This document shows positions 4,010 to 20,190 of a stretch of DNA of 32,000 nt, piece after piece. Position numbers and translations under genes: made by a program. Numbering within the stretch: the first letter of the stretch is position 1; each line of letters starts with the position of its first letter. Origin of the DNA: Promethearchaeum syntrophicum (GTDB lineage: Archaea; Asgardarchaeota; Lokiarchaeia; Sigyniarchaeales; Promethearchaeaceae). The notes under the pieces were generated by a model that searched no databases, had not been told where the DNA came from, and worked only from the letters and a program-made list of their open reading frames with translations. The DNA lies in contig NZ_CP042905.2 in NCBI RefSeq assembly GCF_008000775.2, positions 2,760,001-2,792,000 on the forward strand, given 5' to 3'.

Positions 4010-5163
4010 ATGTCACATTTTGGGTCGTAATCTTCAAATTTTCCGCTAAAACTACTACTCGATCGATTATCACTGAATTTTATGGAACACAGAATTCCCA
4101 AATGCAGTAATTGGATTTTAAAAGCGAAATATATGTTTCGATTTAGATTTTTTTCAAGTATCTCTCTAGATTTTAATTTTTCGTAGTCTCCTTCCTGGTA
4201 ATATTTTCTAATTTCCTCAAAATCCATCTTCTTATTACAAAATATATTAATATACATAGTGGGGTATGATTTGATAACGACTTCTAAAATTTCATCCATT
4301 GAAATCTCAGTACGGTTAAAACTATATAGAATCTTCAGAAATTGCTGATATTCAATTTTTCGTTCATAGAGAGTTCTGATCATATAGGCTAATTCAGGTT
4401 CTTCATCGTATAGTTTTTTATTTCCCTTCAATGATTTCTTAATTTTAATCAATATCTTATTATTATATCCCATTTTTAAGAGAGATTTGCAAAATCCTTC
4501 ACCAAGGGGAGTAAGAGAAAAATTATTGTTTGCTTCTTGAAGAAGCCCTAAATACAGACATCCATTTATGACATGAGAATCTTTAAATAAATCAACACCC
4601 CAATCTCTGGTAATAATTGTTTGTAATGATGATTTTTCAATGGGATTTGATAAGGATGTATAGAATATGGGAGAAATATAATTCAATACCTGTGTTTTTC
4701 CGAGTTTAACTAATCTTATAGATGGCTTTTTTTCCGCAAGAAGAAGCTCTATAGTATTTGAGACATCATTTAAAAATATTGGAGCATAGGAAAATCGTGG
4801 CTCGATTTGTTCTATATTTCCAGATTCATCAACTAAAAATAGCCCCAATCCAATAGATTCAATTAAATCACGGTATCGTTTTAGCTTAAATCGTGCAGCT
4901 GCAATATAGGAATACATAACACCTTTTTTATAGATTAATGCTTGACCGATGGCTTTTTCAATGTTATCAATACCTTTTGCTTCTATTGCAAAAACTCGAT
5001 TATATTTATCGACACCAAAGATATCTGGAGCATGCCCATCGATATTTAAACGGAATTTATTGAAGGAAAGATGTTTCAATGTTGGATGTGTATCGATCCA
5101 AAAATGAGTGGTATTTTTCTTCAAATGATTGCAAACAGACTCGATTACAAATGGTTCGTTCAT
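3982..5163 (-). CDS. PD-(D/E)XK-fold nuclease (putative restriction endonuclease subunit) with a helical C-terminal region
   Basis: The N-terminal signature is HAPD47IFGV...FAIE61AK63G followed by QALIYK (nt ~4975-5025), the classic PD...ExK arrangement. The gene lies directly downstream of the C5 methyltransferase on the same strand, and its stop overlaps the HNH gene start. Confidence 0.6.
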   Translation of the reverse strand: MNEPFVIESVCNHLKKNTTHFWIDTHPTLKHLSFNKFRLNIDGHAPDIFGVDKYNRVFAIEAKGIDNIEKAIGQALIYKKGVMYSYIAAARFKLKRYRDLIESIGLGLFLVDESGNIEQIEPRFSYAPIFLNDVSNTIELLLAEKKPSIRLVKLGKTQVLNYISPIFYTSLSNPIEKSSLQTIITRDWGVDLFKDSHVINGCLYLGLLQEANNNFSLTPLGEGFCKSLLKMGYNNKILIKIKKSLKGNKKLYDEEPELAYMIRTLYERKIEYQQFLKILYSFNRTEISMDEILEVVIKSYPTMYINIFCNKKMDFEEIRKYYQEGDYEKLKSREILEKNLNRNIYFAFKIQLLHLGILCSIKFSDNRSSSSFSGKFEDYDPKCDIWVINGDLK

Positions 5164-5323
5164 CTCTTATGATTACCTTATCACTTTTTGTTATAAATGC
5201 TTTTCTACTTTAGAATACTGTGCTATAGTAAACAAATAGTGTAAATGATAAAAAAAATTCCAGATCTTTATAAGGTTTTTACATGTTCAAAATTAAATAA
5301 TTTTAGAAGAACATACCGAACGA

Positions 5324-6592
5324 TTAATAAAAATCTTCAAAATGCCGATATTTCAGAATTTTTTTTGAGAAATATATTCTTTTCGTGGTAATTTTATCGA
5401 GTATTTCATATTTAATTAGTTTCCGAAACGATTTCTTAAAATCTAAATAATGCAAATTAAAATCTTTACATACGTTTTCTAAAGATTGAATAGGAATAAT
5501 TCCTGTTTTTGAAATATAATTTCCAATTAATAAGATTTTAAGTACTTGATATTCCAATTTGGAAAGATCATTAAACTTTTTGATTTTTCTTTCATAGATA
5601 TCTTTTTTCACAATGGAAAAATGTTTATATATCTCATTCCCGATTTGATTTATAACTGGTACAGATACAGTATTTCCTATTTGTTTGTATTGCTCTGTTT
5701 CCGAGATATTTTCTGGAAATGTAAAAGTACTTGGAAATCCTTGGACTTTTAAAAATTCATTTGGAGTTAATCGACGTATTAATTCTGAATTTCTCATTGA
5801 TGGTTTATATATACCAATTTTTTCCCATTTTATATTTTCTTTGCTTTCTTTTATTAAATTACGTTCTCTACCCATTCCTCCACATACAATAGTATTTGCA
5901 ATTCCGCTTTTAGGAATGACTTGAAAACCAAATCCATTTCCTTTTTCTTGATGTCTTTTTTTATGTTTTTTTAATCCGTTAAGATATCTTTGAGATAATA
6001 AATATTTTGAAGATATTTGTTTTTTTAAGCAGTTTTTGAGTTGGATTTCTCTTCTAACGGGTTCAGGAAAAGTAAAATCCGTATAATTTTTAAAACAAAC
6101 GATATAAAGTCTTTCTCTTTTTTGAGGTACGTTATAATTGGCAGAATTGAGAACCTTAAAAAAGACATAGTATTCAAGAAAATATTCAAGTTGGTTCAAA
6201 ATCCATAGAAATGTTCTTTTCTTATTATGGGTTTTTAGGAACTTTACGTTTTCAAAAAAAACAACTTCAGGTTTTTTGATATTTATAATATCAAATACTT
6301 TAAAAACCAACCTGCCTCTTTCGTCCAGAAATCCTTTACGTTTACCTGCAATGGAGAATGCTTGACATGGAAAACCAGCTAGCAAAATATCAAAATCTGG
6401 GATTTTTTTAGGTTTAATTTCTAATATATCTGTGTTTTCGGGTTCATGATTAAAATTATGAAAATAAGTTCTACGCGAATATTCGGATTTTTCACTAGCA
6501 TATATAATTTTTATATTCTCTCCGAAAGCTTGTTCGATTCCAAGCCGAATTCCTCCAATTCCCGCAAACAAATCAATCGCTTTTATAACCAT
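5324..6592 (-). CDS. DNA (cytosine-5)-methyltransferase
   Basis: All canonical C5-MTase motifs occur in order: I DLFAGIGG, IV GFPCQAFS, VI ENV, VIII QKRERLYIV, IX RRLTPNEFLKVQGFP, X YKQIGNTVSVPV. An extra ~95 aa C-terminal tail follows motif X. Confidence 0.92.
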   Translation of the reverse strand: MVIKAIDLFAGIGGIRLGIEQAFGENIKIIYASEKSEYSRRTYFHNFNHEPENTDILEIKPKKIPDFDILLAGFPCQAFSIAGKRKGFLDERGRLVFKVFDIINIKKPEVVFFENVKFLKTHNKKRTFLWILNQLEYFLEYYVFFKVLNSANYNVPQKRERLYIVCFKNYTDFTFPEPVRREIQLKNCLKKQISSKYLLSQRYLNGLKKHKKRHQEKGNGFGFQVIPKSGIANTIVCGGMGRERNLIKESKENIKWEKIGIYKPSMRNSELIRRLTPNEFLKVQGFPSTFTFPENISETEQYKQIGNTVSVPVINQIGNEIYKHFSIVKKDIYERKIKKFNDLSKLEYQVLKILLIGNYISKTGIIPIQSLENVCKDFNLHYLDFKKSFRKLIKYEILDKITTKRIYFSKKILKYRHFEDFY

Positions 6593-6626
6593 TATTTAAT
6601 CATTTACAATAATTTTATTTAATAAC

Positions 6627-7292
6627 CTATTGGTTTATATGATTCAGAAAATTGTAACAATTTTCTTTTAATTTACAAATGGAACAATGGGGATTTAAAG
6701 GTTTACATATAATTGCTCCAAAATCGATTAAAGAATAATTATATTTTTTAAAGTTTTTTTCCGGTAAAAGTCTTTCGGCTAAATTCCAAAATATCGGATC
6801 GTATTTATGATTTTTATTATCATTGGTTAAAAAGAAAAATCTTTTGAAAATTCTTATTATGTTGGAATCAACTAAGGGAAGCTTAATATTTTTACCAAAA
6901 CAGATTATTGCATGAGCCGAATATTTACCAATTCCTGATAATTTTAAAAAATCAGCAATTTTGAAGTCCCTGAAAGATTTCTCATTGTTTCTTATTGAGT
7001 TTATTGCATTTTTTAGAAATGTGGCCCTTTTTATTAATCCCAATTTCTTAAAAAAATCGGTAAAATCACCTTTATAAAGGAGTAATGCATTAATATTTGG
7101 GAAAATTTGAATGAATTTGTTATAAGACTCAATAATTTGAGATGCTTTTGTTCGTTGTAAAAAAAATTCGCTTATAAAAGCTTTATATACATTCGGATTA
7201 ATACGCCATGGAAATGATCTTAGATTATCAGAACCCCAATTGAGTATTTGTGTTGTAAAAAATATCTTATTAGATACACTTAAAATCATCAT
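6627..7292 (-). CDS. HhH-GPD DNA glycosylase with a 4Fe-4S cluster loop (endonuclease III/MutY/Mig superfamily; probably a Mig-type T/U:G mismatch glycosylase)
   Basis: The helix-hairpin-helix is LSGIGKYSAHAIICFG and the catalytic Asp region is LPLVDSNIIRIF. The C-terminal cluster is CKPLNPHCSICKLKENC, with spacing C-x6-C-x2-C-x5-C. The gene sits immediately upstream of, and on the same strand as, the C5-MTase. Confidence 0.8.
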   Translation of the reverse strand: MMILSVSNKIFFTTQILNWGSDNLRSFPWRINPNVYKAFISEFFLQRTKASQIIESYNKFIQIFPNINALLLYKGDFTDFFKKLGLIKRATFLKNAINSIRNNEKSFRDFKIADFLKLSGIGKYSAHAIICFGKNIKLPLVDSNIIRIFKRFFFLTNDNKNHKYDPIFWNLAERLLPEKNFKKYNYSLIDFGAIICKPLNPHCSICKLKENCYNFLNHINQ

Positions 7293-7361
7293 TTTTCAAA
7301 ATAATAATCAATAATCAATAAAGGTTTTTAAGAATTAAACTAAAAATAATTATATAATAAA

Positions 7362-8372
7362 ATGCAAAAATTCCAAAATAGAATAATTATTGATCCCAAA
7401 TTTTTTTTGTCAATAGAAGAATTATCAAAAAAAAATATAGATCTTTCCAGCAATTTTGAAAAATTTCCACTATATTCTGGTGAATTCCTCAATGAAGGAA
7501 GTCTATCTTTTAATAGTATCGAAGTAAAAAATCTATCAGTAGAAAAAGGCCAAAAAATATCCAATGACTACATTATCGGAGCATATGATGAATCTATAAA
7601 TAAATATAATGGATTGGCAGGAAATGCGTATTTAATATCTCATACATATGTATATATTGGAAACAAAGACTACATCCCAGCAATTTATTTAAGTTTTTTT
7701 TTCTTTTCAAGATCCAAAGAAATAGCAGTGAACAATACTAACTTGATATATTCAAAAGATTTGGAAAGTGAAGCAAGGAAGTTAATGCATATTCAAATGT
7801 TGGAGTTTTTAAAGGAAAATTCAATAAAAAATAGTATATTATTGATAGACGGCCCAATTTTCACGGGTTCATTATCTACCAAAACGATCGATTTTAACGA
7901 ATATATGGTTGAAAAAAATATTCTACCAATCTATATTGTAAAAAATAGTATAAGCAATCTAGTAAGTGATAATGTTTTTTCATTAAAAAATAAATATAAT
8001 AGCGATATGCATTGGGCATATAAATTTTTGAAACCAGGTCAAAGATCGAATTTTTTCATTTATGAGGAAAAAAAAAGCAAGAGAAGAACAAAAGTATTTT
8101 GTTATCTAAAAACTTTTGATATTAGTCCAGTCAGAATTGAAGTTTACAAAAACATTTATTTAGGAAAACAAGAATTAGTTGAAAATCTTATGCATCTGAT
8201 TTATTTTCTCATTATAGTTCAAGGAGAAAAACAAAATCCCCAACCCAGACCTATTATAATAGCGGAAAGGTTTTCAAGAGAAAGTATTAAATTATTCAAT
8301 TTAAATAAACTAATGAGGAAAATAGGTATAGAAGGAATTATGAATCAAAATAGAAATATGGTGAATTTTTAA
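7362..8372 (+). CDS. nurA: NurA-like 5'-3' nuclease
   Basis: NurA-type motifs occur in order: IIGAYDES (first acidic motif), ESEARKLMHIQMLEF, ILLIDGPIF, IVKNSISNL, SDMHWAYKFLKPGQRSNFF, KVFCYLKTFDISPVRIEV, RPIIIAERFSRESI. The gene ends 2 nt before the HerA-like gene. Confidence 0.7.
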   Translation: MQKFQNRIIIDPKFFLSIEELSKKNIDLSSNFEKFPLYSGEFLNEGSLSFNSIEVKNLSVEKGQKISNDYIIGAYDESINKYNGLAGNAYLISHTYVYIGNKDYIPAIYLSFFFFSRSKEIAVNNTNLIYSKDLESEARKLMHIQMLEFLKENSIKNSILLIDGPIFTGSLSTKTIDFNEYMVEKNILPIYIVKNSISNLVSDNVFSLKNKYNSDMHWAYKFLKPGQRSNFFIYEEKKSKRRTKVFCYLKTFDISPVRIEVYKNIYLGKQELVENLMHLIYFLIIVQGEKQNPQPRPIIIAERFSRESIKLFNLNKLMRKIGIEGIMNQNRNMVNF

Positions 8373-8374
8373 AA

Positions 8375-9916
8375 ATGAGTTGGATCGTTTTAGGGGAAGA
8401 TAAGGGAGAAATTAGTCTTGTATCTTCAAGGGAAATTGATGGTATTGCACCGAAAGGAACTTATCTCACAGTAGAAAATGAGAAGAAAAAATATATTGTT
8501 AGAGTCACGAAAAGCTTTCAGACTCAACCATACAATCCTTCACCCTTGTTGATAGATATGAATTTAGAGGGTTTAGAAGCGGATAAAAAATGTCAAAATA
8601 TAATTAAAGCAGTCAGAATTAAAGATATTTCCGATAGAGATGATGGATTAATTGATTTTATACGCCCTCAATTAAAAGCCAGAAGGTCTACAGTTCAAGA
8701 AGTAAAAGATGCGGTAAAAGATAAGAAAGACGGTATCCCAATATTTTTATCTACGGTATTTGCAAATTCCATTCAAATTTTAAAGGACAACAATAAAAAT
8801 CCGATACATATTAATTTGCATGATGACATTTTTTTTCATCAAATACTGATATGTGGAAAAACTGGAAGGGGAAAAACGGTGGCTTCGAAATATTTAGCAC
8901 AATTTTTTGTGGAAAAAATAAAAGGTGCGGTTTTAGCAGTTAATGTAAAAGAAACAGATTTAATTAAGATGTATAAGAAATCTGAAACAAAGGATGCTTC
9001 GATTTTAAAGGAATGGGATGCTATTGGAGAATCAGCTCATGGAATGTTTAATTTTCAAGTGTATTATCCTTCGAATACATCATATTCCCCCGATTTGGAC
9101 ATAGATAGAACATATTTTAAACCAATAACATTGAATATTAATGAAATCGACCCTGAATCTTTAAAAGGGATTTTAAATAACATTACAGATATTGCTGCTC
9201 ATCACCTTCCTGATATTTTTAGACATTGGAAGGATTTTCAAACTTCTGACGATTATAAATTTATGGACTTTTATAATTATTTTTCAAGAAATGATAATCG
9301 AGAATTCCCAACTTTAAATTTAAGAGGGGATGAAGCCCAAATTAAATTACCTTATGGGACCTATCAAAATATTTTGAGAAATTTAAATTCCGCTGCAGAA
9401 TTCTTCGATGATCCTGATGGTGAATTTATAACCGAAAATAATATTCTAAACAGAGAAACAATGAGTGTTATTGATGTGGCAAATAAAAATGGGATTAATT
9501 TCGGAGCGATTTTATTACGGGACTTATTAAAAAGAATAGAAAAAGCAAAAACTGAAGGAAAATCGAATGTACCAATTTTGATAATCATAGATGAAGTACA
9601 TCAATTTTATAAAAATGCAAATTCTGCTGAAGCTTTAGGAGATCTTGATGTTATATGTAGAACAGGGAGAAGCAAGAAAATTGGTGTAATTTTTTCATCT
9701 CAAAATCCTAATGATATTCCAAAAGGATTGGAATCGGTCATTAACACTAAAATTTTCTTCGGATCGGAACACTCAGTTATTAAAAAATTCGGTTTTAATG
9801 TTTCTGAGAATGAAATAGAAAATTTGGAAAGAGGATATGCTCTAGCTACGATTTATGGTACACCTCAGGTTAAATTTATAAAATTCCCTCTTTCTTTTTC
9901 AGGTGTTTTCACATAG
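8375..9916 (+). CDS. herA: HerA/FtsK-type hexameric ATPase (DUF87-like)
   Basis: The N-terminal beta-barrel-like segment is GEISLVSSREIDGIAPKGTYLTVENEKKKYIVRV. Walker A is ICGKTGRGKT (nt 8855-8878) and Walker B is ILIIIDEVHQF. The Arg-finger/sensor region CRTGRSKKIGVIFSSQNPNDIP is typical of HerA. Confidence 0.8.
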   Translation: MSWIVLGEDKGEISLVSSREIDGIAPKGTYLTVENEKKKYIVRVTKSFQTQPYNPSPLLIDMNLEGLEADKKCQNIIKAVRIKDISDRDDGLIDFIRPQLKARRSTVQEVKDAVKDKKDGIPIFLSTVFANSIQILKDNNKNPIHINLHDDIFFHQILICGKTGRGKTVASKYLAQFFVEKIKGAVLAVNVKETDLIKMYKKSETKDASILKEWDAIGESAHGMFNFQVYYPSNTSYSPDLDIDRTYFKPITLNINEIDPESLKGILNNITDIAAHHLPDIFRHWKDFQTSDDYKFMDFYNYFSRNDNREFPTLNLRGDEAQIKLPYGTYQNILRNLNSAAEFFDDPDGEFITENNILNRETMSVIDVANKNGINFGAILLRDLLKRIEKAKTEGKSNVPILIIIDEVHQFYKNANSAEALGDLDVICRTGRSKKIGVIFSSQNPNDIPKGLESVINTKIFFGSEHSVIKKFGFNVSENEIENLERGYALATIYGTPQVKFIKFPLSFSGVFT

Positions 9917-9936
9917 TAAATAATGGGGTTTAAAAA

Positions 9937-10086
9937 ATGTTAGATGAAGAAAAAAAAATGTTTGGTAATTTAATAGATAGTTTGCACCCTAATGATTTAG
10001 AAAGAAAAATAATTATGTTGCTTCACGAAAAGAAGAATTTTGATGAAATAATTGATATTTTATTGGAAAATGATGTGGATGATTGA
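9937..10086 (+). CDS. Untracked 49-aa acidic helical micro-protein (hypothetical)
   Basis: I translated this by hand: MLDEEKKMFGNLIDSLHPNDLERKIIMLLHEKKNFDEIIDILLENDVDD*. It starts with ATG 21 nt after the HerA stop. Its stop at 10084-10086 overlaps the likely ATG (10079) of the next gene within ATGATTGA. It is below the size cutoff of the ORF track. In such AT-rich DNA a 49-codon ORF can occur by chance. Confidence 0.4.
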   Translation: MLDEEKKMFGNLIDSLHPNDLERKIIMLLHEKKNFDEIIDILLENDVDD

Positions 10087-12178
10087 AATTAATTACAAGT
10101 TGGAAAGAATAGAAAATGGTGAGGTGATTTCTTCTTATAATGTTCCCAAAGAAATACAAGCAATCCCCCGATTTTCTGTTATAGAAGCACCCAATTCTTC
10201 AGGAAAAAGTACTCTTTTTCATATTATTTCTATAGCATTTGGAGGTACTACTGATAAATCCATTCCTGATTCTTTAAAAACAAAAATGAAAAATTTATTG
10301 GATAGAAATCATCATAATTTAGAGTTTGAAATAAAAATCTTTGAAAATGATGAAGTTTTACTACGATCCTGGAAATCAAAAATGGATACAGTTCCTAATA
10401 TCGAATGTCGTATAATGAATTCGTTAAAAGTAACCAATCTGATTAATTTTAAGGAAAAATTTAAGTTGATCTATGATATTCCTGAGGATCCTATTGGAAG
10501 ATTGAATGCAATGATTCCTGATATAAAATTCTTCTTCTCCGAAATAATGAATAAATTAAAACACTTTTTAAGAAATATTAACGACCTTCAAAAGGAATTA
10601 AAGAAATACGATAAAGAGATTTTGAACAAAAAAAAGAAAAAACTGGAAGAAAATAGTGAATTAATGAAAAGAATGAATTTAAAACTAGATAAAGATGAAA
10701 AATTTATAAACGACTTGGAAAAAGCATTTATTTTTAAATATTATAGGAAATATGAAAGGGAAAAGAAAGAATGCGAGAAAGATATAAAAATACTAGAAAA
10801 AGATGAACGAAAATTAATGAAAGCTGGAACTCAGAAAAAATCGAATTTAAATGCAATGGAAATACAGCTTAAATCGTCCTATGTAAATTTAAAAAGTAAT
10901 CTATACAAAATTTTAGAGGATTTGGATGGAAAAATTGAGAAGAAACAATTAATAGAGTTGAAAGAAATTGAATTTTTAGATTATAGTGACAATAAAACCC
11001 TCCCGAATAATTTCAAAGAAAACTTGGGAGTTATTGAAGAATGTTTAAACGAAAAGCAGAAAGAAATTCCACAAGAAGATATTAAAAAAATTAAATTATT
11101 TTCCGAATTATTGAAAATATTAGAGAATTACAAGAAATATGAAATAGAAATGCCTGGAAAAATACAACTTAAAATTTTCATGAGTGATCTGGAAAAAAAC
11201 TTGAAAGATTTACATAATATCCAAAAAAAAAATAGTTTTTTTTCAGAAAAAATAAAAAATATTAATGAAATTAAGAAAACTTTTATTAAAACAGAAGAAA
11301 AATTAGAGAAATATCATAGTAAAAGAATTGAATACACGAAAGCTGATTTAAAAAAACAGGAAAATATTATTGATGATTTACTTGCAAAAAAAAAAAAAGA
11401 ATGTAAAAAAATTACTAATGTTTTTCTACAATATGAAAAAAGATATAATATTTTAGGAAGACCTGTTGGAATTGACATTATTCCAATTAGTACAAAAAAA
11501 TTTAATGATTATCAATATTTGGATGAAAAATCCCTCGAAAAGGCAATTAGAGATTTTAAAAATACAAATTCAAAAAAACATAATGAAATAAATAATTTGA
11601 AATCTCAAAATAAGGATTTAAGTAAAGATATAGAAGATATGGAAGAAAAAGGACCTCATAAGTATCAGAAACATGAAGAAAAAATAAAATCAATTAGAGA
11701 AGTGGCTGCAAAACTTACAAATTCATATGAAGAAAAATATGTTAAATTTTTTGATGATATTCAAAATAAAAACGTGAAAAAACTAATTAGAGAAGAGAAA
11801 CTAAAATTTTTTGAAATTATTTTTAGCTTTTTAGGTAAAAGAATTAAGCAAGTTAAGCATGAGGATAAAATATATGAAATTAAATCAATGGATTTAATTA
11901 AAGAAGAGATAATTACTAGTAAAGGAGAAAAAATTAGATTCATTGATATGGGAACGGGTCAATCTCAAAGTGCTTATTTACGAAGTAAACTTACTACTAC
12001 AGATAATAAAAAAATTATTGCATTATTTGATGAAATCTCAAATATGGATAATAAATCACTTGAATTGTTATATTCTAAAATAAATGAAAATTTTTTAAAG
12101 AAAAAACAGTTAATATGTCTATTAAATCAACCAGATATTCATAATCAAGGTGTAATAACAGTTAGGAGTCTGGAGTAA
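10052..12178 (+). CDS. SMC/Rad50/RecF-class ABC ATPase with a long coiled-coil insert and no zinc hook
   Basis: Walker A is EAPNSSGKSTLF (nt ~10190-10213). About 450 aa of Lys/Glu-rich heptad-like sequence follows. The signature-like motif is DMGTGQSQSAYL (nt ~11944-11980) and Walker B/D-loop is KIIALFDEISNMD. No CxxC occurs in the coiled coil. The tracked TTG start at 10052 is doubtful; the ATGs at 10070/10073/10079 are better (MIEINYKLERIENGEV...). Confidence 0.75.
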   Translation: MIFYWKMMWMIEINYKLERIENGEVISSYNVPKEIQAIPRFSVIEAPNSSGKSTLFHIISIAFGGTTDKSIPDSLKTKMKNLLDRNHHNLEFEIKIFENDEVLLRSWKSKMDTVPNIECRIMNSLKVTNLINFKEKFKLIYDIPEDPIGRLNAMIPDIKFFFSEIMNKLKHFLRNINDLQKELKKYDKEILNKKKKKLEENSELMKRMNLKLDKDEKFINDLEKAFIFKYYRKYEREKKECEKDIKILEKDERKLMKAGTQKKSNLNAMEIQLKSSYVNLKSNLYKILEDLDGKIEKKQLIELKEIEFLDYSDNKTLPNNFKENLGVIEECLNEKQKEIPQEDIKKIKLFSELLKILENYKKYEIEMPGKIQLKIFMSDLEKNLKDLHNIQKKNSFFSEKIKNINEIKKTFIKTEEKLEKYHSKRIEYTKADLKKQENIIDDLLAKKKKECKKITNVFLQYEKRYNILGRPVGIDIIPISTKKFNDYQYLDEKSLEKAIRDFKNTNSKKHNEINNLKSQNKDLSKDIEDMEEKGPHKYQKHEEKIKSIREVAAKLTNSYEEKYVKFFDDIQNKNVKKLIREEKLKFFEIIFSFLGKRIKQVKHEDKIYEIKSMDLIKEEIITSKGEKIRFIDMGTGQSQSAYLRSKLTTTDNKKIIALFDEISNMDNKSLELLYSKINENFLKKKQLICLLNQPDIHNQGVITVRSLE

Positions 12179-12180
12179 AA

Positions 12181-13116
12181 ATGGAAATTGAAAATTCTAT
12201 TACCGATGATCAGCTTTCGATTTTAGAATATTATTATATAAAATTAAGGGGAAAAATCAAATTAGCAAAAAAAAAATCATTGTATACCTATTTCTTAAAA
12301 GCAAGTTTAAATAGAAATTTTAAAATTATTCAAAGTTCAGTAGGTTTTTTCCCTGAAAAATTCTCAAATACTGCTTTAGAAGAACTAATTGATAAGAAAT
12401 TAATTTATGAAATGAAATTTAGAAATAAATATACGATCTCAGGAAAAGGCATTTTCTTTTATGAATTAGCAATCAATAAATTATCTGTTATAGATTTAGT
12501 CGATAATCTTGAACGTTTTTTTGATTTCGATAGTAAAGCCCAAGAGAAATTGAAGGAATCCGAAAAAATAATTTTAACTATGATGTTATGTCTAAGATCA
12601 TTTTCTAGTGAAGAAAAAATATCAATCAAAGACAACCTTCACTTGGAATCGTTAGATAATTTAATTGGAGATATTATCAAATTTCTGTCAGATGAAGAGA
12701 TCACTAAAAAAATTAAAACTAAAAATGAGTTTTATAAATCAAAAAAAAAAAGAATTGAAACTGAAACTGATTACGGTCCATTAGTTGATGAATACATACT
12801 ATACGAAGCTTTTCATAATAAAACCAGGGATTTGCCAAAAAGAAGTGAATATATTTTCTGTTCTACAGGAAACAAAGAATATTATTTGAATTTAACTGAT
12901 GAATCAATGAATCTAAGTTATGAAAAAATTGAATTTCTAATTAATAAGATATTGAATTCAGTGCCTACAAATAACAAACATGCTAATTTAAAAAGATATT
13001 TGGAGTTTTTAGAAGAAAAATCATTAGAGAAGATATCATCAATTATGGCAAGTAATAAATTCAATAAGATTGAAGTTTCGGAAAATATTAGAAATAAAAT
13101 CTTATTTGGATTATAA
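12181..13116 (+). CDS. Hypothetical protein with an N-terminal winged-helix-like domain; last gene of the NurA/HerA/SMC-like operon
   Basis: The gene starts 2 nt after the SMC-like gene stop. LSILEYYYIKLRG ... ALEELIDKKLIYEMKFRNKYTISGKGIFFYE looks like a helix-turn-helix plus beta-wing. It has no calcineurin-type phosphoesterase motifs (DxH, GDxxD, GNHD/E), so it is not Mre11. Confidence 0.5.
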   Translation: MEIENSITDDQLSILEYYYIKLRGKIKLAKKKSLYTYFLKASLNRNFKIIQSSVGFFPEKFSNTALEELIDKKLIYEMKFRNKYTISGKGIFFYELAINKLSVIDLVDNLERFFDFDSKAQEKLKESEKIILTMMLCLRSFSSEEKISIKDNLHLESLDNLIGDIIKFLSDEEITKKIKTKNEFYKSKKKRIETETDYGPLVDEYILYEAFHNKTRDLPKRSEYIFCSTGNKEYYLNLTDESMNLSYEKIEFLINKILNSVPTNNKHANLKRYLEFLEEKSLEKISSIMASNKFNKIEVSENIRNKILFGL

Positions 13117-13336
13117 CAAAGGGAAGCTGTGATTATGAAATATCCATATCTTTTTCGAAATTTTATCTTTTAAGAACTATATTGTGTGATAAAGCACTTT
13201 TGTCTCAAATAATAACTATAATTACTCTTGAATCTGAATATATTTTATCTATTCCAATGAACGGAATTATGTATGAAAATAGGAATTTGGAATAATTTAG
13301 AAAGATTTTTTAAATTTACTGGGAGAATATCTATTA

Positions 13337-14605
13337 ATGGAAGAGACTGATGTTAAATTTAAATTTTATTCTAAAATTTTTCACGTTAATGGAGATGAAT
13401 TAATTAGTAATGATTTTATAGCGATTTCTGAATTAGTGAAGAATAGTTTTGATGCGAAAGCAAAAAGAGTAGAAATAATTTACGAAGAATCAAAAGGCGA
13501 AACAGGAGACACTAATGGAAGATTTATTATAGAAGATGATGGAGAAGGTATGGATAAAGATATTATTATTGATTATTGGATGGGAGTAGCAGGAGATTAT
13601 AAAGAAGAATTAAAAAAAAAAGGTAAAACATTATTGGGTGATAAAGGAATAGGTAGATTGGCAGCATCACGTATTTCCAATCAATTGATTATGATAACTA
13701 GACCAAAAAAAAAAAATATTGAATACAAAATCAAAATAAATTGGAATAAAATATTTGAAGAACGGTATGCAACGGATTATTCTACGAAATTAAGAGAATA
13801 TTTACCAGAAAACTTTCGAAAAAAAAGTGGAACAAAGTTAATATTAGAAAATATTAAACATAAATGGAATGAGACAAAATTAAAAGAATTAAAAAATCAT
13901 TTATCAAGATTAATTAATCCATTAAATCCAAGTATTGATAAAAAAATTCGTTTAACTCTTCCAGATAAATATAAATCTCTTTCTGGATATATTTTTTCTT
14001 CTAAAATTATAAAAACTCCAATGTATTCAATCAAAGGAAGAATTGATGAGTCAGGAATAATTACTTTTTCAGCTTCATGTAAATTAATTGAGGAATCAAG
14101 ATTAGAAGAATTTTCGAATAAAAAAGAAAAAATTCAAATGGAAAAATTTGCCAAATTTCAGTTTGAATATAGATACTGGGATTTTGATGATCCTTTGCTT
14201 AATAAATTGTCTAATATTATTGACTATGTAAAAACAGAAATTCGAAAAAATATAATATATCACTCAGGAATAAGTGTATATCGTGATAATTTTCGAGTTA
14301 TGCCATATGGTGATTATAATTTAGATTGGCTTGATTTAAATACTAGAAGAATTAAGCGATTGTCAGATTTCATTCAAAATGACCATATTATTGGAGCAAT
14401 TTCATTTTCTTCAAAAGATAATCCAGATTTAAAGGATCAATCAAATCGTGAAGGTTTTGACAAAAATATTGAATTTCAAATATTTAAGGATACGGTCATC
14501 AAGACAATTTCAATTTTAGAAAGATTTCGACATATTTTTCTAATGGAAATAAAAAAAAAAAAAAAGAAGCAAAAAAAAAGAAACAAAAAATCGATGAACT
14601 TTTAA
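13337..14605 (+). CDS. GHKL (Bergerat-fold, MORC/HATPase_c_3-like) ATPase; probably the N-terminal part of a longer frameshifted gene
   Basis: The N-box is ISELVKNSFDAKA, the G1 box is IEDDGEGMD and the G2 box is GDKGIGRLAASR. A conserved-looking GISVYRDNFRVMPYGD...DWLDL segment follows. The last 17 aa (KKKKKKQKKRNKKSMNF) are read through A15 and A9 tracts and look like out-of-frame translation. Confidence 0.7.
   Translation: MEETDVKFKFYSKIFHVNGDELISNDFIAISELVKNSFDAKAKRVEIIYEESKGETGDTNGRFIIEDDGEGMDKDIIIDYWMGVAGDYKEELKKKGKTLLGDKGIGRLAASRISNQLIMITRPKKKNIEYKIKINWNKIFEERYATDYSTKLREYLPENFRKKSGTKLILENIKHKWNETKLKELKNHLSRLINPLNPSIDKKIRLTLPDKYKSLSGYIFSSKIIKTPMYSIKGRIDESGIITFSASCKLIEESRLEEFSNKKEKIQMEKFAKFQFEYRYWDFDDPLLNKLSNIIDYVKTEIRKNIIYHSGISVYRDNFRVMPYGDYNLDWLDLNTRRIKRLSDFIQNDHIIGAISFSSKDNPDLKDQSNREGFDKNIEFQIFKDTVIKTISILERFRHIFLMEIKKKKKKQKKRNKKSMNF
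14551..14565 (+). repeat. A15 homopolymer at the junction of the GHKL and histidine-kinase reading frames (followed by an A9 run at 14571-14579)
   Basis: I counted this directly in the sequence. It is the longest A-run I found in the window, and the only long run that coincides with a change of open reading frame. Confidence 0.9.
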
Positions 14606-14655
14606 TTTATCAAAAAAGAAAAAAGAAAAAGACTCAGCAACGTCGAAAAGATGAA

Positions 14656-15564
14656 TTGGTCAAAGTCAAAAATTTAAAAGAAAATATTGTTAATATTTCA
14701 AAATTAACAAGCACAAGCGATCTTAAAACAGCGTCCAAAAAGATTGAAAAATCTTTAACGATCTTTGAAAATTCTATAAAAAATTTACAAAAAGAAGAAG
14801 TAAAACAAATCCAAGATGAAATGGAATTAGTAAAAAATACAATTAGTGAAAATAAGAAAGAAAAGAAAGAAATTAAAGAATTAAAAGGTTTATGTTCAAT
14901 CGGACTTCAAGTTGAAACTTTGATACATGATGGTAATAGCATTTTATATCATTTATCTAATATTGTAAGTGATAGCAAAGATGAATTCGAAAATGAAGAA
15001 AAAGTTCTATCTAAATTGAATAATATATCTGATGAAGTAAATTCTTTACAGTTTGTCTTAGATAGGATAAACCCTATAACAAAGAAAGGTTATAACAAAA
15101 AAATATCAATAAATTTAAGTGATTTTTTAAAGAATTATGTAAATAAATGGAAAAATCAATTAAAAACTGATCAATTTACAATTAATGTTGATATTCCTAA
15201 AAGAGATATAAAAATATCTTTGATGCAAGGTGAAATTTGTACTATAATTATGAATTTGCTTGATAATAGTATATTTTGGCTTGCACAAGATAAAACAAAT
15301 CATAATAAAAAAATTGTTATAGATATTCAATCTAAAAAAAAAAACTTGCATCTAATTTTTTCTGACAATGGTAAAGGTGTTCCTAAATCGGAACAAAAAA
15401 GGATATTTGAACCCAGAATATCTTTAAAACAAGATGAAGGATGGGGACTAGGATTATATATTATAAGAGAAATTTTGGATGAATTAAATGGGGAAATACA
15501 ATATCGTGATTCACCACTTCCTGGAGCAAATTTTATAATAATAATACCAAAAATTGTGTTGTGA
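14656..15564 (+). CDS. Histidine kinase core (HisKA_3-like DHp plus HATPase_c catalytic domain)
   Basis: The candidate phospho-His is in ETLIH91DGNSILYHL (nt 14926-14928), resembling the LHD motif of HisKA_3. The N-box is IIMNLLDNSIFW, G1 is SDNGKGVP and G2 is GWGLGLYIIREI. The only in-frame start is a TTG. The frame is open upstream to nt 14488, which suggests fusion with the upstream GHKL ORF. Confidence 0.75.
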   Translation: MVKVKNLKENIVNISKLTSTSDLKTASKKIEKSLTIFENSIKNLQKEEVKQIQDEMELVKNTISENKKEKKEIKELKGLCSIGLQVETLIHDGNSILYHLSNIVSDSKDEFENEEKVLSKLNNISDEVNSLQFVLDRINPITKKGYNKKISINLSDFLKNYVNKWKNQLKTDQFTINVDIPKRDIKISLMQGEICTIIMNLLDNSIFWLAQDKTNHNKKIVIDIQSKKKNLHLIFSDNGKGVPKSEQKRIFEPRISLKQDEGWGLGLYIIREILDELNGEIQYRDSPLPGANFIIIIPKIVL

Positions 15565-15570
15565 TTAATT

Positions 15571-16680
15571 ATGGTAAAGTTTTCGTTACTTTATATTGAA
15601 GATAAAATAGATATGATAGGAGATTTAGAAACTCCACTAAAAAAACGATATGATAAAGATATTGAATTTTCATTTGAATCAGATTTTGACGTAGCTAAAA
15701 ATACTGTAAATGATAAGATCTTTGATATTGTTGTGATAGATGTTAAAGATGGATTAGGTAATTATTCTGGGCTTGACATATACGAAAAAGTATTAGAATA
15801 TGGCTTAGTTCACACTATTTTTTTTACTGGGTTCCTTTCGGATATTAAAAAAACAAAAATTGAAGAATCTGATTATTGTTCAATTATTGAAAAAAATACT
15901 AGTGGAAGAGATAATATTTTGAAAAAGATTGATGAAATCATAAATTCAGAACTATTTCTATTTAAGAAAGAAATCATTATTTTAACAAACAAATCTATCA
16001 GAGAATCAATAGATGTCCTTTTTAATCTTTGGCAAAATAGTAATTTTACTAAAGATGAAAAAAAGAAATTAATAATCAATAGGCTTTCACATACTGTACT
16101 CAATAATAATAATTTTGATAGGAAATCAAATTCTGATTATTTCATTTTTCCACCGTTAAAAAATTCAAATGCAAATTTTCAGATGGGAGATATTGTATAT
16201 CCGAAAAGTGAGAATGAAATGCCTCAAAATCAAAGGAATTATTACATTATTCTCAATAGAGATTGTTCATTAACACTAGTTAATCCACGAAAAGGAAAAG
16301 AACCTTTACCAAAAACGGAAAAGATATTATTTGCTTCTATTTTCGAATTACGTGAATTATGGGAAAATTATTATACTCGGTTAGAAATAAAAACAAAAAA
16401 AAGAAAAAGTAAAAAATCATTCCTAATGGAAATTTTAGCCCAAAAGATATCGAGATTCTTTCTAATTCCTTTTGATTTCATTTCCAATAAAGTTCTTATT
16501 GATTTTGAAAATTTAACCAGTTTGGATTACGTCCATTTTTCAAATGAGTATGAAGTGATTACTAGTTTAGTTGATGATTTTCGACATAGAATTAATCAAA
16601 GATTTTCACTACATTATTCCTCAATTGGCTATGCAGATTTTGATGAAAATACATTAATTCAAAGTTTATTAGATCCCTAA
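15571..16680 (+). CDS. Response regulator: canonical receiver (REC) domain fused to a ~240 aa unassigned output domain
   Basis: REC landmarks sit at CheY-like positions: E10-D11 (LLYIED), D57 (DIVVID57V), T86 (IFFT86G), K108 (SIIEK108). The gene starts 6 nt after the kinase stop. The C-terminal region (GDIVYPKSENE...YYIILNRDCSL...ILFASIFEL...) has no motif I can assign. Confidence 0.7.
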   Translation: MVKFSLLYIEDKIDMIGDLETPLKKRYDKDIEFSFESDFDVAKNTVNDKIFDIVVIDVKDGLGNYSGLDIYEKVLEYGLVHTIFFTGFLSDIKKTKIEESDYCSIIEKNTSGRDNILKKIDEIINSELFLFKKEIIILTNKSIRESIDVLFNLWQNSNFTKDEKKKLIINRLSHTVLNNNNFDRKSNSDYFIFPPLKNSNANFQMGDIVYPKSENEMPQNQRNYYIILNRDCSLTLVNPRKGKEPLPKTEKILFASIFELRELWENYYTRLEIKTKKRKSKKSFLMEILAQKISRFFLIPFDFISNKVLIDFENLTSLDYVHFSNEYEVITSLVDDFRHRINQRFSLHYSSIGYADFDENTLIQSLLDP

Positions 16681-19181: not shown

Positions 19182-20168
19182 TTACTTATTTCTTATTTTC
19201 ATCAACCTAGTATTGAAAGCTGCTTGGGATTCTGTTAAAATCATAATACCTTCAATTAATCCAAGTAAACCGGGAATGAAAGTCCAAGATAGGCAAAAAT
19301 AGACAATTCCTAAGGTTGTATCTCCCATATAAAATTTATGGACACCTAAATCACCAAATAATAGTGCCAATAATCCAGATACATTTTGTTGTGGATCGGA
19401 AGATTGAAGGGGGTTTGTTGAAGGTGTGGTAGGAGAATAATTAGGAGGAATTATTGTATTTTGAGAAGAGATATCTTGTTGTTGATGAGATTCTGGAGGA
19501 TTTTGAACTGCATCCTTCCCGATAAGCAACTCCCATTTTATCTCATCGAATCGACCGATTATGTATCCATCATGAATTTTCTTCAGAATGATTTTCTTGG
19601 CTTTTAATGGAGCAATATTACATGATATAGCCAGATTATTAATCTGAATTACTTTTTCGGTTTGTATTAATTCCATTAATTTTTTATCAAAGCAAGATTT
19701 CTTTCCAAATGCCATTGTCTTAATTTCTTCATTATTTAGTTTAAATAGCGAATGATAGGTTTTATACCAATAAAAGTATATTATAAAGGTTGGTAAGAAG
19801 GGTAGAACCCCAAACGCAATTATTCCTGCCCAAAAATTAATTCCTGAGCAATAATCTATTATTTTTATAATATCCCAAATAAAAACTGCTGGAAAAAAGA
19901 TTCGTAGAATTATTTTGATCTGGTTAATGATTATTTTTGATACACCTTTTGTTGTTAGAACTAGATTTAAAATAATGAGGTATGTAATCAAAATAATATA
20001 TAATGAATAACTGGGAGGAGGAGTAGGAGAAAGAACATAAATAAATTTAAACAGAATTATAAAGACGATATTTATAAAAAAAAATACAATAATCGACTTT
20101 TTCGGGATTATTATAGAAGAGGGTGATATATTTTTTTTTGTGGACATTATTATGCACTTTTTAATCAA
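19182..20168 (-). CDS. Multi-pass membrane protein with a central wHTH-like module, a Pro/Ser/Thr/Gln linker and a C-terminal TM2 domain (paralog A)
   Basis: The C-terminal TM2-type motif is GLLALLFGDLGVHKFYMGDTTLGIVYFCLSWTFIPGLLGLIEG. Alignment with paralog B (30035..30961) indicates the real start is Met8 at nt 20147 (MSTKKNISPSS...). Confidence 0.75.
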   Translation of the reverse strand: MIKKCIIMSTKKNISPSSIIIPKKSIIVFFFINIVFIILFKFIYVLSPTPPPSYSLYIILITYLIILNLVLTTKGVSKIIINQIKIILRIFFPAVFIWDIIKIIDYCSGINFWAGIIAFGVLPFLPTFIIYFYWYKTYHSLFKLNNEEIKTMAFGKKSCFDKKLMELIQTEKVIQINNLAISCNIAPLKAKKIILKKIHDGYIIGRFDEIKWELLIGKDAVQNPPESHQQQDISSQNTIIPPNYSPTTPSTNPLQSSDPQQNVSGLLALLFGDLGVHKFYMGDTTLGIVYFCLSWTFIPGLLGLIEGIMILTESQAAFNTRLMKIRNK

Positions 20169-20190
20169 TAATATTAGCTAATAATTCACT

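Follow-up and report, generated by a model that had tools for sequence, protein, structure and literature searches.

Locus organization

Five plus-strand genes lie at positions 7362-13116 in the ORF listing of the window, by which we mean the whole 32,000-nucleotide stretch of Promethearchaeum syntrophicum MK-D1 DNA analyzed here. The gene order is NurA, HerA, a 49-aa micro-protein, a Rad50/SMC-like ATPase, and a 311-aa fifth protein. The features and the evidence for each are as follows.

5324..6592, minus strand: C5 cytosine DNA methyltransferase (Pfam DNA_methylase, 1e-79; PADLOC MTase_II, 1e-105)
6627..7292, minus strand: HhH-GPD glycosylase or nicking enzyme (Pfam HhH-GPD, 1e-7; PADLOC PDLC03398)
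7293..7361, no strand: divergent AT-rich intergenic region, 69 nt, between the HhH-GPD gene (minus) and NurA (plus) (sequence reading)
7362..8372, plus strand: NurA-family nuclease, 336 aa, first cassette gene (Pfam NurA PF09376)
8375..9916, plus strand: HerA/FtsK-clade hexameric translocase ATPase, 513 aa (Pfam HerA_C and DUF87)
9937..10086, plus strand: acidic two-helix micro-protein, 49 aa (alignment and HMM across loci)
10079..12178, plus strand: hook-less Rad50/SMC-fold ABC ATPase, 699 aa (UniRef match, AF2 model, Foldseek)
12181..13116, plus strand: fifth protein, 311 aa, new family (family profile, AF2 model, co-divergence)
13117..13336, plus strand: spacer of 220 nt after the fifth gene, with T-runs ctttttcgaaattttatctttt (sequence reading)

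The genes are tightly packed, with a 2-nt gap from NurA to HerA, a 20-nt gap from HerA to the 49-aa ORF, an 8-nt overlap between the stop of that ORF and the start of the ATPase gene, and a 2-nt gap from the end of the ATPase gene (12178) to the 311-aa ORF. The initial annotation had read this spacing as one operon, and we reproduced every gap and the overlap exactly, as expected of an operon-like cassette. The overlap is valid for the ATG at 10079, which yields a 699-aa ATPase and agrees with the orthologue N-termini (MIEYDY); the length of 708 aa given earlier belongs to a longer ORF from TTG-10052, a trivial inconsistency. The promoter presumably lies in the 69-nt region, and the operon probably ends in the T-run spacer. 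Recurrence of the same five genes, colinear, in 40 other distinct loci puts the arrangement far outside what chance would produce.

Components of the cassette

NurA matches Pfam PF09376 (E 9e-9, 35.6 bits, cut-off 21). HerA matches both HerA_C (1.6e-9) and DUF87 (8e-6) above cut-off, so the original assignment of the first two genes holds. Residues Y75-D76-E77-S78, D163-G164 (the IDGP block), N213-S214-D215-x-H217-W218, E260, and E302 are invariant in 39 cassette NurA orthologues, which have a mean pairwise identity of 45%. Since the NurA profile finds no match in the PDB at E<=1, this NurA is, at the profile level, very divergent from solved NurAs; nor does any PADLOC model recognize it. HerA is the most conserved component (55% identity), with Walker A (G161..K167-T168), Walker B (D406-E407), R429/R432, and S442-Q443-N444 invariant in 37 orthologues. 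It is also matched by the PADLOC HerA models and mad8, and weakly matches VirB4, TrbE, and CedD-type transfer ATPases. Against the NCBIfam canonical HerA equivalogs, it scores only 22-29 bits, where the cut-offs are 800-970.

The ATPase is a 100% match to DSAG12_03020 (699 aa), named "Rad50/SbcC-type AAA domain" in UniRef. Conserved across the family are Walker A (PNSSGKST), a signature-like MGTGQSQ, Walker B (IIALFDE), the D-loop MD, and the elements LIYDIPEDPxxR, EPHxYQ, and Q684. The AF2 model (pLDDT 81) has a split head and ~420 residues of coiled coil, comprising an N-head (1-133), a coiled coil running up (145-282) and down (379-562) around a small apex (283-378), and a C-head (590-699). 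A Foldseek search with this model returned Rad50 (7zr1, E 1e-8), LmuB (9hqx, 4e-7), and MukB (7e-7), as well as Smc5/6, and the predicted structure most resembles Rad50 and LmuB in size and fold. The CxxC zinc hook is absent from all 45 family members, in keeping with the first description of a hook-less Rad50/SMC-class protein carrying GTGQSQ. A PADLOC LmuB model is matched by 13 of 16 family members (best E 4e-12), mainly over the N-terminal head.

The micro-protein could be aligned across 7 loci and was detected by HMM in 22; direct reading of the HerA-ATPase gaps gave equivalent ORFs of 40-58 aa in 12 further loci, and in one other (L031) the gap holds only an interrupted frame. Its pI is 4.4 in P. 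syntrophicum and 4.0-5.1 in 16 of the 19 sequences of the alignment. We found no relative in Pfam, PADLOC, or the PDB.

The fifth protein likewise has no sequence match in Pfam, PADLOC, or the PDB, even with a 150-sequence profile, and by these searches it is a new family. Of 1.84 billion cluster representatives, 375 belong to that family; the best 150 of the 375 are all stand-alone proteins, with complete copies of about 290-310 aa. Both extra proteins noted at the outset are thus real, conserved families. The label "wHTH" for the 311-aa protein fared less well. Its Foldseek matches are mostly winged helices (MarR, GntR, F-93, MUS81), but none is significant, and the AF2 model, almost all helical with two small hairpins, is poor (pLDDT 49). 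We take it, on the weak basis of a low-confidence model, for a probable partner of the ATPase, serving as a winged-helix DNA-binding protein or an adaptor. Nothing in the protein suggests a calcineurin/Mre11 fold or the corresponding motifs, and profile searches found no Mre11 or Metallophos match in any cassette product, which bears out the reported lack of Mre11.

Distribution and evolution

Counting P. syntrophicum, the colinear five-gene cassette occurs in 41 loci. Hosts include Asgard archaea, methanogens (Methanosarcinales), DPANN, Bathyarchaeia, Thermoplasmatota, Bacillota, Chloroflexota, Bacteroidota, Cloacimonadota, CPR, and Dialister hominis, yet only 34 of 185,579 species genomes carry it. 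This extreme patchiness across both domains, together with locus GC contents from 0.25 to 0.61, indicates spread by horizontal transfer. Searches of 72,556 plasmids and of the viral contigs in IMG/VR did not find the cassette, and one copy (L041) appears decayed.

Catalytic and ATPase motifs are invariant across the family in NurA, HerA, and the SMC-like ATPase. NurA and HerA form a conserved pair, whereas the ATPase (26% identity), fifth protein (26%), and micro-protein (30%) diverge faster; the ATPase and fifth protein co-diverge (rho 0.90). We found no description of the five-gene combination in the literature, as had been supposed.

Genomic neighborhood and DNA modification

Flanking genes are unrelated from locus to locus and rich in defense and mobile genes, among them AbiE, GmrSD, AbiTii, a WYL regulator, a NERD helicase, toxin-antitoxin genes, PDC-M02B, and R-M genes. 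An integrase fragment and IS1595 lie in the vicinity of one cassette (L005). Across loci, we found no integrase, relaxase, or replication gene recurrently adjoining the cassette, and no synteny with repair or housekeeping genes. The neighborhood-conservation check proposed earlier thus placed orthologous operons in variable or defense regions of many unrelated genomes of both domains.

The defense-island context described for the window is also there, with the C5 methyltransferase and an HNH gene upstream and GHKL and HK-like genes downstream, although the GHKL genes accompany the cassette in no other locus. GC content is lower at 1-16 kb of the window than further along. The HhH-GPD gene is a full-length match to the PADLOC "Type II nicking endonuclease" PDLC03398 (E 1e-31); an HhH-GPD enzyme is the usual mismatch-repair companion of a C5 methyltransferase. 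The methyltransferase itself belongs to a series of minus-strand genes that also includes a 393-aa ORF and the HNH nuclease, which could be its own restriction partner, and the arrangement is the same in another Promethearchaeum sp. (L008). Because it sits in what appears to be its own R-M operon, its standing as a possible modification partner of the cassette is ambiguous here.

Of 40 distinct loci, 23 have a DNA-modification-type gene adjoining the cassette; this gene often shares the cassette's strand and lies at -22 to +130 nt. Most often it encodes a D12 adenine methyltransferase; in the remaining cases the product is an N4/N6 or C5 methyltransferase or a B12-radical-SAM protein. Elsewhere, the D12 methyltransferase has a Type II restriction enzyme immediately upstream in 48 of 78 loci (PADLOC REase_II, 3e-74); beside the cassette-linked D12 methyltransferases, there is none (0/16). 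The difference gives Fisher p-values of 2e-5 to 2e-6, which are optimistic because the cassette loci are not phylogenetically independent. The initial annotation had treated the R-M genes as context; the frequency of adjoining modification genes and the missing restriction enzymes instead point to R-M-like self-marking, beyond Lamassu-type end sensing alone. Defense islands are enriched in methyltransferases in any case, and the enzyme is not dedicated: the cassette is present in only 2 of 80 metagenomic loci of the same methyltransferase clade, about 40% of whose metagenomic members are orphans anyway. Methylation cannot be obligatory, because a modification gene is missing from about six loci whose flanks are good.

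Comparison with known systems

The cassette is distinct from Lamassu, MADS, MANTIS, and the canonical repair operon. The canonical archaeal order is herA-mre11-rad50-nurA. Like that operon, the cassette encodes NurA, HerA, and a Rad50-fold coiled-coil ABC ATPase together, keeps the sub-order herA-[gene]-rad50, and has NurA and HerA of canonical sizes. Unlike it, the cassette lacks the Mre11 phosphoesterase, and the micro-protein takes its place ahead of the ATPase; that ATPase is without a zinc hook and has GTGQSQ replacing the canonical signature; a ~300-aa protein is added; and HerA falls far below the equivalog cut-offs. The operon is broadly conserved in archaea, whereas the cassette is patchy and apparently horizontally transferred.

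Lamassu (LmuA-LmuB-LmuC, including Vibrio DdmABC) is a documented descendant of the SbcCD/Rad50-Mre11 repair complex (PMC12663957). In both Lamassu and the cassette, the ATPase derives from Rad50, lacks the hook, and is about 600-700 aa long; a small HTH-like partner is encoded just upstream; and a nuclease effector is coupled. However, the cassette effector is a separate two-protein motor-nuclease, NurA-HerA, with no LmuA carrying a C-terminal docking domain; a modification enzyme often adjoins it, which is no Lamassu feature. With no LmuA or LmuC equivalent detected and only weak LmuB profile matches confined to the head, we rejected Lamassu membership.

SIR2-HerA (Nezha) and DUF4297-HerA also combine a HerA hexamer with a degradative effector in defense islands, but here the effector is NurA, HerA's ancestral partner, and three further obligatory proteins are present, the SMC-like ATPase included. 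BREX, DISARM, MADS, and MANTIS/Gao_RL resemble the cassette in placing a methyltransferase beside large ATPases and a nuclease, although the cassette methyltransferase is facultative and variable in class. MANTIS consists of an AAA+ ATPase, a co-regulator, a methyltransferase, and an SF2 helicase-nuclease, and the only MADS models matching the cassette are mad8 and mad3, at the ATPase level. DndD-DndE, a "DNA-scanning apparatus" that can recruit methylases (PMC10853773), is a co-evolving pair of coiled-coil ABC ATPase and DNA-binding protein, comparable to our ATPase and fifth protein, and in DndH, HerA/FtsK domains have been recruited into restriction. None of BREX, DISARM, MADS, MANTIS/Gao_RL, or DndD-DndE contains NurA. 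Wadjet (JetABCD) and MukBEF share an SMC-superfamily ATPase, small winged-helix partners, and nuclease coupling. However, the cassette ATPase resembles JetC and MukB less closely in structure than it does Rad50 and LmuB, is much shorter, and has no hinge; no kleisin, KITE, or Toprim nuclease (JetD) was detected in the cassette. No PADLOC model recognizes the micro-protein or the fifth protein.

Proposed mechanism and alternatives

We infer a defense function from these sequence patterns. The reading we favor, at somewhat better than an even chance, is a horizontally mobile, DNA-targeting defense cassette in which a sensor module would steer a NurA-HerA motor and host DNA would often be marked as self by methylation. 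NurA and HerA would form the conserved effector module; by analogy with solved archaeal and bacterial complexes, a HerA hexamer would pump double-stranded DNA into a NurA dimer, which would shred it. The hook-less ATPase, the ~300-aa probable winged-helix protein, and the ~50-aa micro-protein would form a second, fast-diverging and internally co-evolving module, an ATP-dependent DNA sensor or loader that chooses the DNA handed to the motor. Such a complex would sense unmodified or foreign DNA and degrade the invader, while the modification enzyme adjoining more than half of the loci would protect host DNA by marking it as self; at those loci, the cassette would take the restriction enzyme's role. 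In Lamassu structures, hook-less Rad50 derivatives with an HTH-like partner sense DNA ends (PMC12663957), defense systems that join HerA to a nuclease or NADase effector are well established (PMC11291478, PMC11472057), and HerA-NurA itself has been considered for a possible antiviral role (PMC12977600).

A Lamassu-type abortive infection system, along the lines of the earlier proposal of a Lamassu-like sensor, in which the ATPase and its small partners sense phage DNA ends or replication intermediates and NurA-HerA attacks all DNA, host included, would fit the Rad50- and LmuB-like fold, the LmuB profile matches, the missing zinc hook, as in short LmuB (PMC12663957), the small gene directly upstream of the ATPase, as LmuC lies upstream of LmuB, and the well-flanked loci with no modification gene. 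We nevertheless think it unlikely: no effector carries the LmuA C-terminal domain, neither small partner matches LmuC, LmuB similarity is mainly to the head, and the methyltransferases would be unrelated to the system, which leaves the missing restriction enzyme beside every cassette-linked D12 methyltransferase unexplained. That same absence, along with the rarity and patchiness of the cassette, its variable, defense-rich contexts, the low HerA equivalog scores, the fast-evolving sensor module, and the decayed L041 copy, makes an accessory double-strand-break repair or end-resection machine distinctly improbable. Such a machine would be an Mre11-independent, horizontally spread variant of HerA-Mre11-Rad50-NurA. 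In its favor, the cassette has counterparts of three of the four canonical components, circularly permuting the canonical order gives nurA-herA-[small]-rad50-like, and in Deinococcus, bacterial HerA-NurA acts in recombination without Mre11-Rad50 (PMC12977600).

More doubtful still, and in our view very improbable, is that the genes serve an integrated mobile element's own DNA processing, segregation, or transfer, as an FtsK/HerA-type pump with an SMC-like protein and no part in host defense. The transfer-ATPase matches of HerA, the integrase fragment and IS1595 near L005, and the lower GC at 1-16 kb of the window lean that way, but mobility or replication genes do not recur beside the cassette, plasmids and viral contigs gave no matches, and DNA transfer fits poorly with a processive nuclease whose active-site residues are intact. 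If the favored reading of a sensor-directed NurA-HerA defense cassette is true, these genes would make up an immune system that degrades DNA and is built from DNA-repair parts.

Organization of the cassette

The initial annotation placed five plus-strand open reading frames (ORFs) here, separated in turn by 2 nt, 20 nt, an 8-nt overlap, and 2 nt. Our reading of the ORFs gives exactly these positions and spacings:

7362-8372, plus strand, NurA
8375-9916, plus strand, HerA
9937-10086, plus strand, micro-protein of 49 aa
10079-12178, plus strand, hook-less Rad50/SMC-like ATPase of 699 aa, its ATG overlapping the stop of the micro-ORF; 100% identical to DSAG12_03020
12181-13116, plus strand, fifth protein of 311 aa; 100% identical to DSAG12_03021

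The longest ORF for the ATPase opens at TTG 10052 and would encode 708 aa (window 10052-10086). We prefer the ATG at 10079 because the N-termini of orthologs and the public annotation agree with it. NurA and HerA are referred to below as the effector module, and the other three products as the second module.

The NurA and HerA proteins

The cassette NurA scores 35.6 bits against Pfam PF09376, above the gathering threshold of 21. This broad Pfam family is all that it reaches, as there were no NCBIfam matches, and a profile built from the cassette NurA proteins reaches none of the solved NurA structures. The protein is of canonical length with no added domain. Seven residues are invariant among 39 orthologs (D76, E77, D163, D215, H217, E260, and E302), and we infer that they map to the catalytic site. 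HerA matches both HerA_C (37.4 bits, threshold 22) and DUF87 (26.5 bits, threshold 23.2), and its invariant positions include GxxGxGKT, DE, R429/R432, and S-Q-N at 442-444. Walker A and B motifs, a sensor Q, and an arginine finger are the hallmarks of the HerA/FtsK clade (PMC10853773), and the cassette HerA has all of these along with both domains. It scores far below the cut-offs of the curated equivalogs, at 28.6 bits against 970 for NCBIfam helicase_HerA and 21.6 against 800 for HerA_Thermprot. Judged by these profiles and motifs, both proteins are true, yet very divergent, members of their families.

The hook-less ATPase

At the sequence level, the ATPase resembles Rad50, SMC, and LmuB at the P-loop only. 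An AlphaFold2 model built from 16 homologs is fairly confident (pLDDT 81). In it, the two parts of a split ABC head are joined by an antiparallel coiled coil of ~420 residues with a small apex. A Foldseek search with this model returned Rad50 (E 1e-8), Lamassu LmuB (4e-7), and MukB (7e-7), followed by Smc5/6 and condensin, with a probability of 1.00 for Rad50, LmuB, MukB, and Smc5/6. On the strength of the model, the protein is a member of the Rad50/SMC superfamily, with Walker A in the N-terminal part and the signature, Walker B, and D-loop in the C-terminal part. The family keeps Walker A, an invariant LIYDIPEDPxxR block, EPHxYQ, Walker B, and the D-loop. Its signature-like motif is GTG[QEH], and a Q occupies the usual switch-His site. 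None of the 45 family ATPases has a CxxC zinc hook. Of 16 family members, 13 are recognized by the PADLOC LmuB model PDLC03859, at best with E 4e-12; in the window protein, the match covers residues 32-128 only.

The micro-protein and the fifth protein

The micro-protein HMM is positive in 22 loci, and 12 more have an ORF of 40-58 aa in the gap between HerA and the ATPase that is usually acidic and two-helix. In one locus (L031), this gap holds only an interrupted frame. We considered whether the micro-protein is a relic of the C-terminal Rad50-binding helix-loop-helix of Mre11. A 19-sequence profile gave no significant PDB match and none to Mre11, which leaves this idea as speculation.

Of 1.84 billion cluster representatives, 375 belong to the fifth-protein family. 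The 150 best of these are all stand-alone proteins, and complete copies are ~290-310 aa long. No Pfam, PADLOC, or PDB relative was found, even with the 150-sequence profile. The AlphaFold2 model is poor (pLDDT 49) and depicts an almost entirely helical protein with two small hairpins; its Foldseek matches are non-significant and are mainly to winged-helix DNA-binding proteins. An Mre11, or calcineurin-like, fold in this protein was one result that the initial annotation said would overturn its reading. We saw no sign of such a fold in motifs, profiles, or the model, low in confidence as that model is, and no conserved D/H metal-binding motifs were seen. Assignment as a kleisin or as LmuC was likewise rejected, as Pfam and PADLOC were empty and a weak ScpB match was non-significant. 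The micro-protein and the fifth protein are real families. The fifth gene is tandemly duplicated on an uncultured Methanosarcinales contig (L014, 5938-6822 and 6832-7713).

Distribution and divergence of the cassette

The same five-gene order occurs on contigs that carry ATPase homologs, namely a deltaproteobacterial MAG and five metagenomic contigs, and the neighboring genes are different in every case. A genome scan with the NurA profile identified 34 loci among 185,579 species genomes. The equivalent scan with the ATPase profile confirmed nothing and was uninformative, its candidates being mostly generic Walker A matches. Archaeal carriers include a Promethearchaeum sp., Atabeyarchaeia, Methanosarcinales/Methanoperedens, Nanoarchaeia, Woese-, Pace-, and Micrarchaeota, as well as Bathyarchaeia, Thermoplasmatota, and Methanosuratincola. 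Bacterial carriers are Bacillota, Neomarinimicrobiota, Cloacimonadota, Anaerolineae/Chloroflexia, Peribacteria, Melioribacter, Bacteroidaceae, and Dialister hominis. HMMs for the five components showed a colinear cassette on every contig that was long enough. The loci range in GC from 0.25 to 0.61, and PLSDB and IMG/VR held no matches on plasmids or viral contigs. Together, the patchy spread, the wide GC range, and the absence from these two databases mark the cassette, at the sequence level, as a rare set of chromosomal island genes spread by horizontal transfer rather than a housekeeping system.

We compared identities and distances over 26 complete loci (22 for the micro-protein). HerA (55% mean pairwise identity) and NurA (~46%) are more conserved than the ATPase (26%), the fifth protein (~27%), and the micro-protein (30%). 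Distances of the ATPase and the fifth protein correlate tightly (rho 0.90), those of NurA and HerA less so (0.53), and those across modules at ~0.4. Defense systems usually show this pattern, in which the effector is conserved and the sensor or specificity module evolves fast, its parts changing together. That the ATPase and the fifth protein co-diverge so tightly suggests a physical partnership between them.

Six loci (L011, L013, L019, L021, L028, and L034) form a divergent subclade, found in Methanoperedens/Methanosarcinaceae, Atabeyarchaeia, Thermoplasmatota, and an uncultured archaeon. Here, the ATPase signature is GTGH and the micro-protein is shorter (41-46 aa), with NurA and HerA still well conserved. 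Since the MK-D1 and Atabeyarchaeia copies fall in different subclades, their sequences suggest that the two Asgard copies were acquired separately. A Chloroflexia copy (L041, 10161-15592) is split into many short ORFs and is either a decaying, pseudogenized cassette or the product of indel errors in a long-read assembly.

Genomic context in the window

The cassette is flanked in the window by the following genes:

2906-7292, minus strand, series of HhH-GPD protein, C5 methyltransferase, 393-aa protein without assignment, and 367-aa HNH nuclease
5324-6592, minus strand, the C5 methyltransferase of this series, divergently adjacent to the cassette
13337-16680, plus strand, three-gene GHKL/histidine-kinase-like module directly downstream of the cassette
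19182-20168 and 30035-30961, minus strand, two TM2-domain paralogs
21678-23738, two WD40 beta-propeller paralogs
23780-29098, minus strand, TPR+LRR protein of 1772 aa
29305-29958, TBP

In the upstream series, the HhH-GPD protein matches a nicking or mismatch enzyme (PADLOC, 1e-31), and the HNH nuclease is PDC-M01B/PtuB-like and overlaps the 393-aa ORF by 28 nt. The series may be a self-contained restriction-modification operon with a deamination-repair companion, which makes any link between a methyltransferase and the cassette ambiguous in the window. Downstream, the GHKL ATPase has an N-terminus like BbrUII/HgiDII-type restriction enzymes (NCBIfam, 4e-20) and a weak MzaB match. The HATPase_c protein is histidine-kinase-like with no HisKA domain detected, and the third protein (369 aa) is without matches. 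These genes may form another defense module. We excluded them from the cassette because they accompany it in no other locus.

The genes at 19182-31529 are typical Asgard-style genes with a GC of 0.26-0.37. GC is lower in the first 16 kb (0.22-0.31), and the left part of the window is therefore consistent with an acquired island.

Neighborhoods of other loci and a possible methyltransferase link

The initial annotation would have abandoned a defense role if orthologous operons never occurred in variable or defense regions. Their flanks hold many defense and mobile genes, including AbiEi/AbiEii, two GmrSD genes, HNH, AbiTii, YopA, an integrase fragment with IS1595, PemK, HicA and PIN toxins, a WYL regulator, a NERD helicase, Fic/RhuM, RadC, and PDC-M02B. 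One signal dominates a bulk scan of 148 flanking ORFs (L008-L041), with 14 D12-class adenine methyltransferases, 5 N4/N6 enzymes, and 1 C5 enzyme; no restriction-enzyme family recurs among these ORFs. In many cases, the methyltransferase directly borders the cassette on its own strand, at -22 to +130 nt, in front of NurA or behind the fifth gene. A modification-type gene lies within 1.5 kb in 23 of the 40 distinct loci. In a Nanoarchaeia genome, PDC-M02B (5e-55) lies just upstream of the methyltransferase-cassette unit (L012, 7539-8639). A further, unrelated ATPase gene of the HerA-like (DUF87) kind lies no more than a few kb from the cassette at two loci (L003, 1038-2327; L021, 16518-17993).

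Some cassettes have no methyltransferase. Three of these carry a homologous B12-binding radical-SAM gene (396-466 aa) in corresponding positions, before NurA or after the fifth gene:

L001 13100-14500, same strand as the cassette, B12-binding radical-SAM protein
L004 5888-7078, same strand as the cassette, B12-binding radical-SAM protein
L005 5831-7090, same strand as the cassette, B12-binding radical-SAM protein

The radical-SAM protein could be an alternative modification enzyme.

Eleven of the cassette-adjacent D12 methyltransferases share 46-59% identity, and we considered whether they form a dedicated clade that co-evolves with the cassette. We dropped this reading because only 2 of 80 same-clade metagenomic methyltransferases (51-63% identity) adjoin a cassette, the other 78 loci having none. 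Among these 78 cassette-free loci, 48 have a ~365-aa Type II restriction enzyme directly upstream of the methyltransferase (PADLOC REase_II, E 3e-74); one cassette-free locus has PbeA, like PDC-M02B above a known or candidate defense gene, beside the methyltransferase (L046, 2601-4667; PADLOC 4e-187). The 16 cassette loci with a D12 methyltransferase all lack that restriction enzyme, and it is NurA or the fifth gene that borders the methyltransferase there. The difference (0/16 vs 48/78) has a Fisher p of 2e-5 to 2e-6, a value made optimistic by the non-independence of the loci. In addition, roughly 40% of the methyltransferases in this clade are orphans even without a cassette. The simplest reading of these neighborhoods is that the cassette can stand in for the restriction enzyme, with methylation marking self, although not universally. 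A methyltransferase without its restriction enzyme shifts the likely logic of the system toward modification-linked restriction.

Relationship to known systems

The closest housekeeping comparison is the canonical HerA-Mre11-Rad50-NurA operon, which has Mre11 and a Rad50 with a CxxC hook, whereas the cassette has neither. No Metallophos/Mre11 match was found in the cassette products or recurrent neighbors, and the cassette HerA is sub-threshold for the curated equivalogs of that operon. With the micro-ORF taking the position of mre11, the order nurA-herA-[micro-ORF]-rad50-like can be derived from herA-mre11-rad50-nurA by circular permutation. This permuted order suggests an origin in the archaeal repair operon, but the micro-protein profile has no sequence match to Mre11. 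Lamassu offers a different comparison. The initial label "Lamassu-like" holds as an analogy but does not extend to membership: PADLOC matches none of the five products to LmuA, which in Lamassu carries a C-terminal domain. The likeness to LmuB is mainly to the head, with a structural match at the superfamily level. LmuC had no PADLOC match to the micro-protein or to 8 fifth-protein orthologs (E<=5), although LmuC families are very diverse and a distant homology may have escaped these models.

MADS (mad1-mad8) is an eight-gene set with a kinase, a nuclease, a methyltransferase, and ATPases, and the cassette shares matches with it at the ATPase level only. Specifically, mad8 matches HerA (4.6e-12) and also the ATPase at the P-loop, mad3 matches 4 of 16 ATPases, and the other mad models have no matches to cassette proteins (PADLOC). 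MANTIS (Gao_RL) comprises an AAA+ ATPase (MtsA), MtsB, a methyltransferase (MtsC), and an SF2 helicase-nuclease (MtsD). Its description names no HerA, NurA, SMC, or Rad50, and the cassette has no SF2 helicase-nuclease. Model matches and the composition of MANTIS thus rule out both identities. Wadjet gives a weaker fold match to the ATPase, and kleisin, KITE, and JetD were not detected in the cassette. Searches of the open-access and bioRxiv literature turned up neither a defense cassette of NurA, HerA, and an SMC-like protein nor one of NurA, HerA, and a methyltransferase. Comparative genomics supports the proposal, made from the sequence at the outset, of an apparently undescribed defense-type system that joins NurA-HerA to a hook-less SMC/Rad50-like ATPase.

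Proposed mechanism and implications

A NurA dimer degrades the duplex DNA that a HerA hexamer drives into it (see PMC12977600 for a review of the structures), and HerA/FtsK domains have repeatedly been recruited into restriction (PMC10853773). In published structures of Lamassu, which evolved from SbcCD, a Rad50 derivative lacking the hook works with an HTH-like partner to recognize DNA ends and activate a nuclease (PMC12663957). In Dnd systems, an ABC ATPase and a DNA-binding protein that co-evolves with it serve as a DNA-scanning device linked to modification (PMC10853773). By analogy, the ATPase, fifth protein, and micro-protein would act as an ATP-dependent sensor or loader that recognizes foreign DNA, either unmodified or free-ended. 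The sensor would then hand this DNA to NurA-HerA for processive destruction, and the adjacent modification enzyme, where present, would protect host DNA. We infer these steps beyond what gene content, folds, and motif integrity provide.

A more specific scenario, which we put forward tentatively and consider rather unlikely, is a new class of modification-linked restriction exapted from the archaeal herA-mre11-rad50-nurA operon. Here, Mre11 would have been lost or reduced to the two-helix micro-protein, and the Rad50 derivative with a new winged-helix specificity subunit would form the sensor of foreign or unmodified DNA that loads NurA-HerA. A Rad50 repair machine would then have been converted to immunity a second time, independently of Lamassu and in parallel with its origin from SbcCD.

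The pairing of a methyltransferase with no restriction enzyme predicts that the cassette is toxic or inactive without the methyltransferase and that restriction is methylation-sensitive. If true, the cassette would be a defense system with a complete NurA-HerA end-resection motor as its effector, which would put a definite role behind the suggestion, made more than once, that HerA-NurA can act against foreign DNA. It would also add a second Rad50-type repair machine turned immune sensor, besides Lamassu, and one that probably arose in archaea and later passed into bacteria, human-gut species among them. Two uncharacterized families, one of ~300 aa and the other the ~50-aa micro-protein, gain clear genetic partners. 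Finally, the presence of the cassette in the cultured Asgard archaeon MK-D1 is relevant to the evolution of eukaryotic genome-maintenance and immunity proteins.
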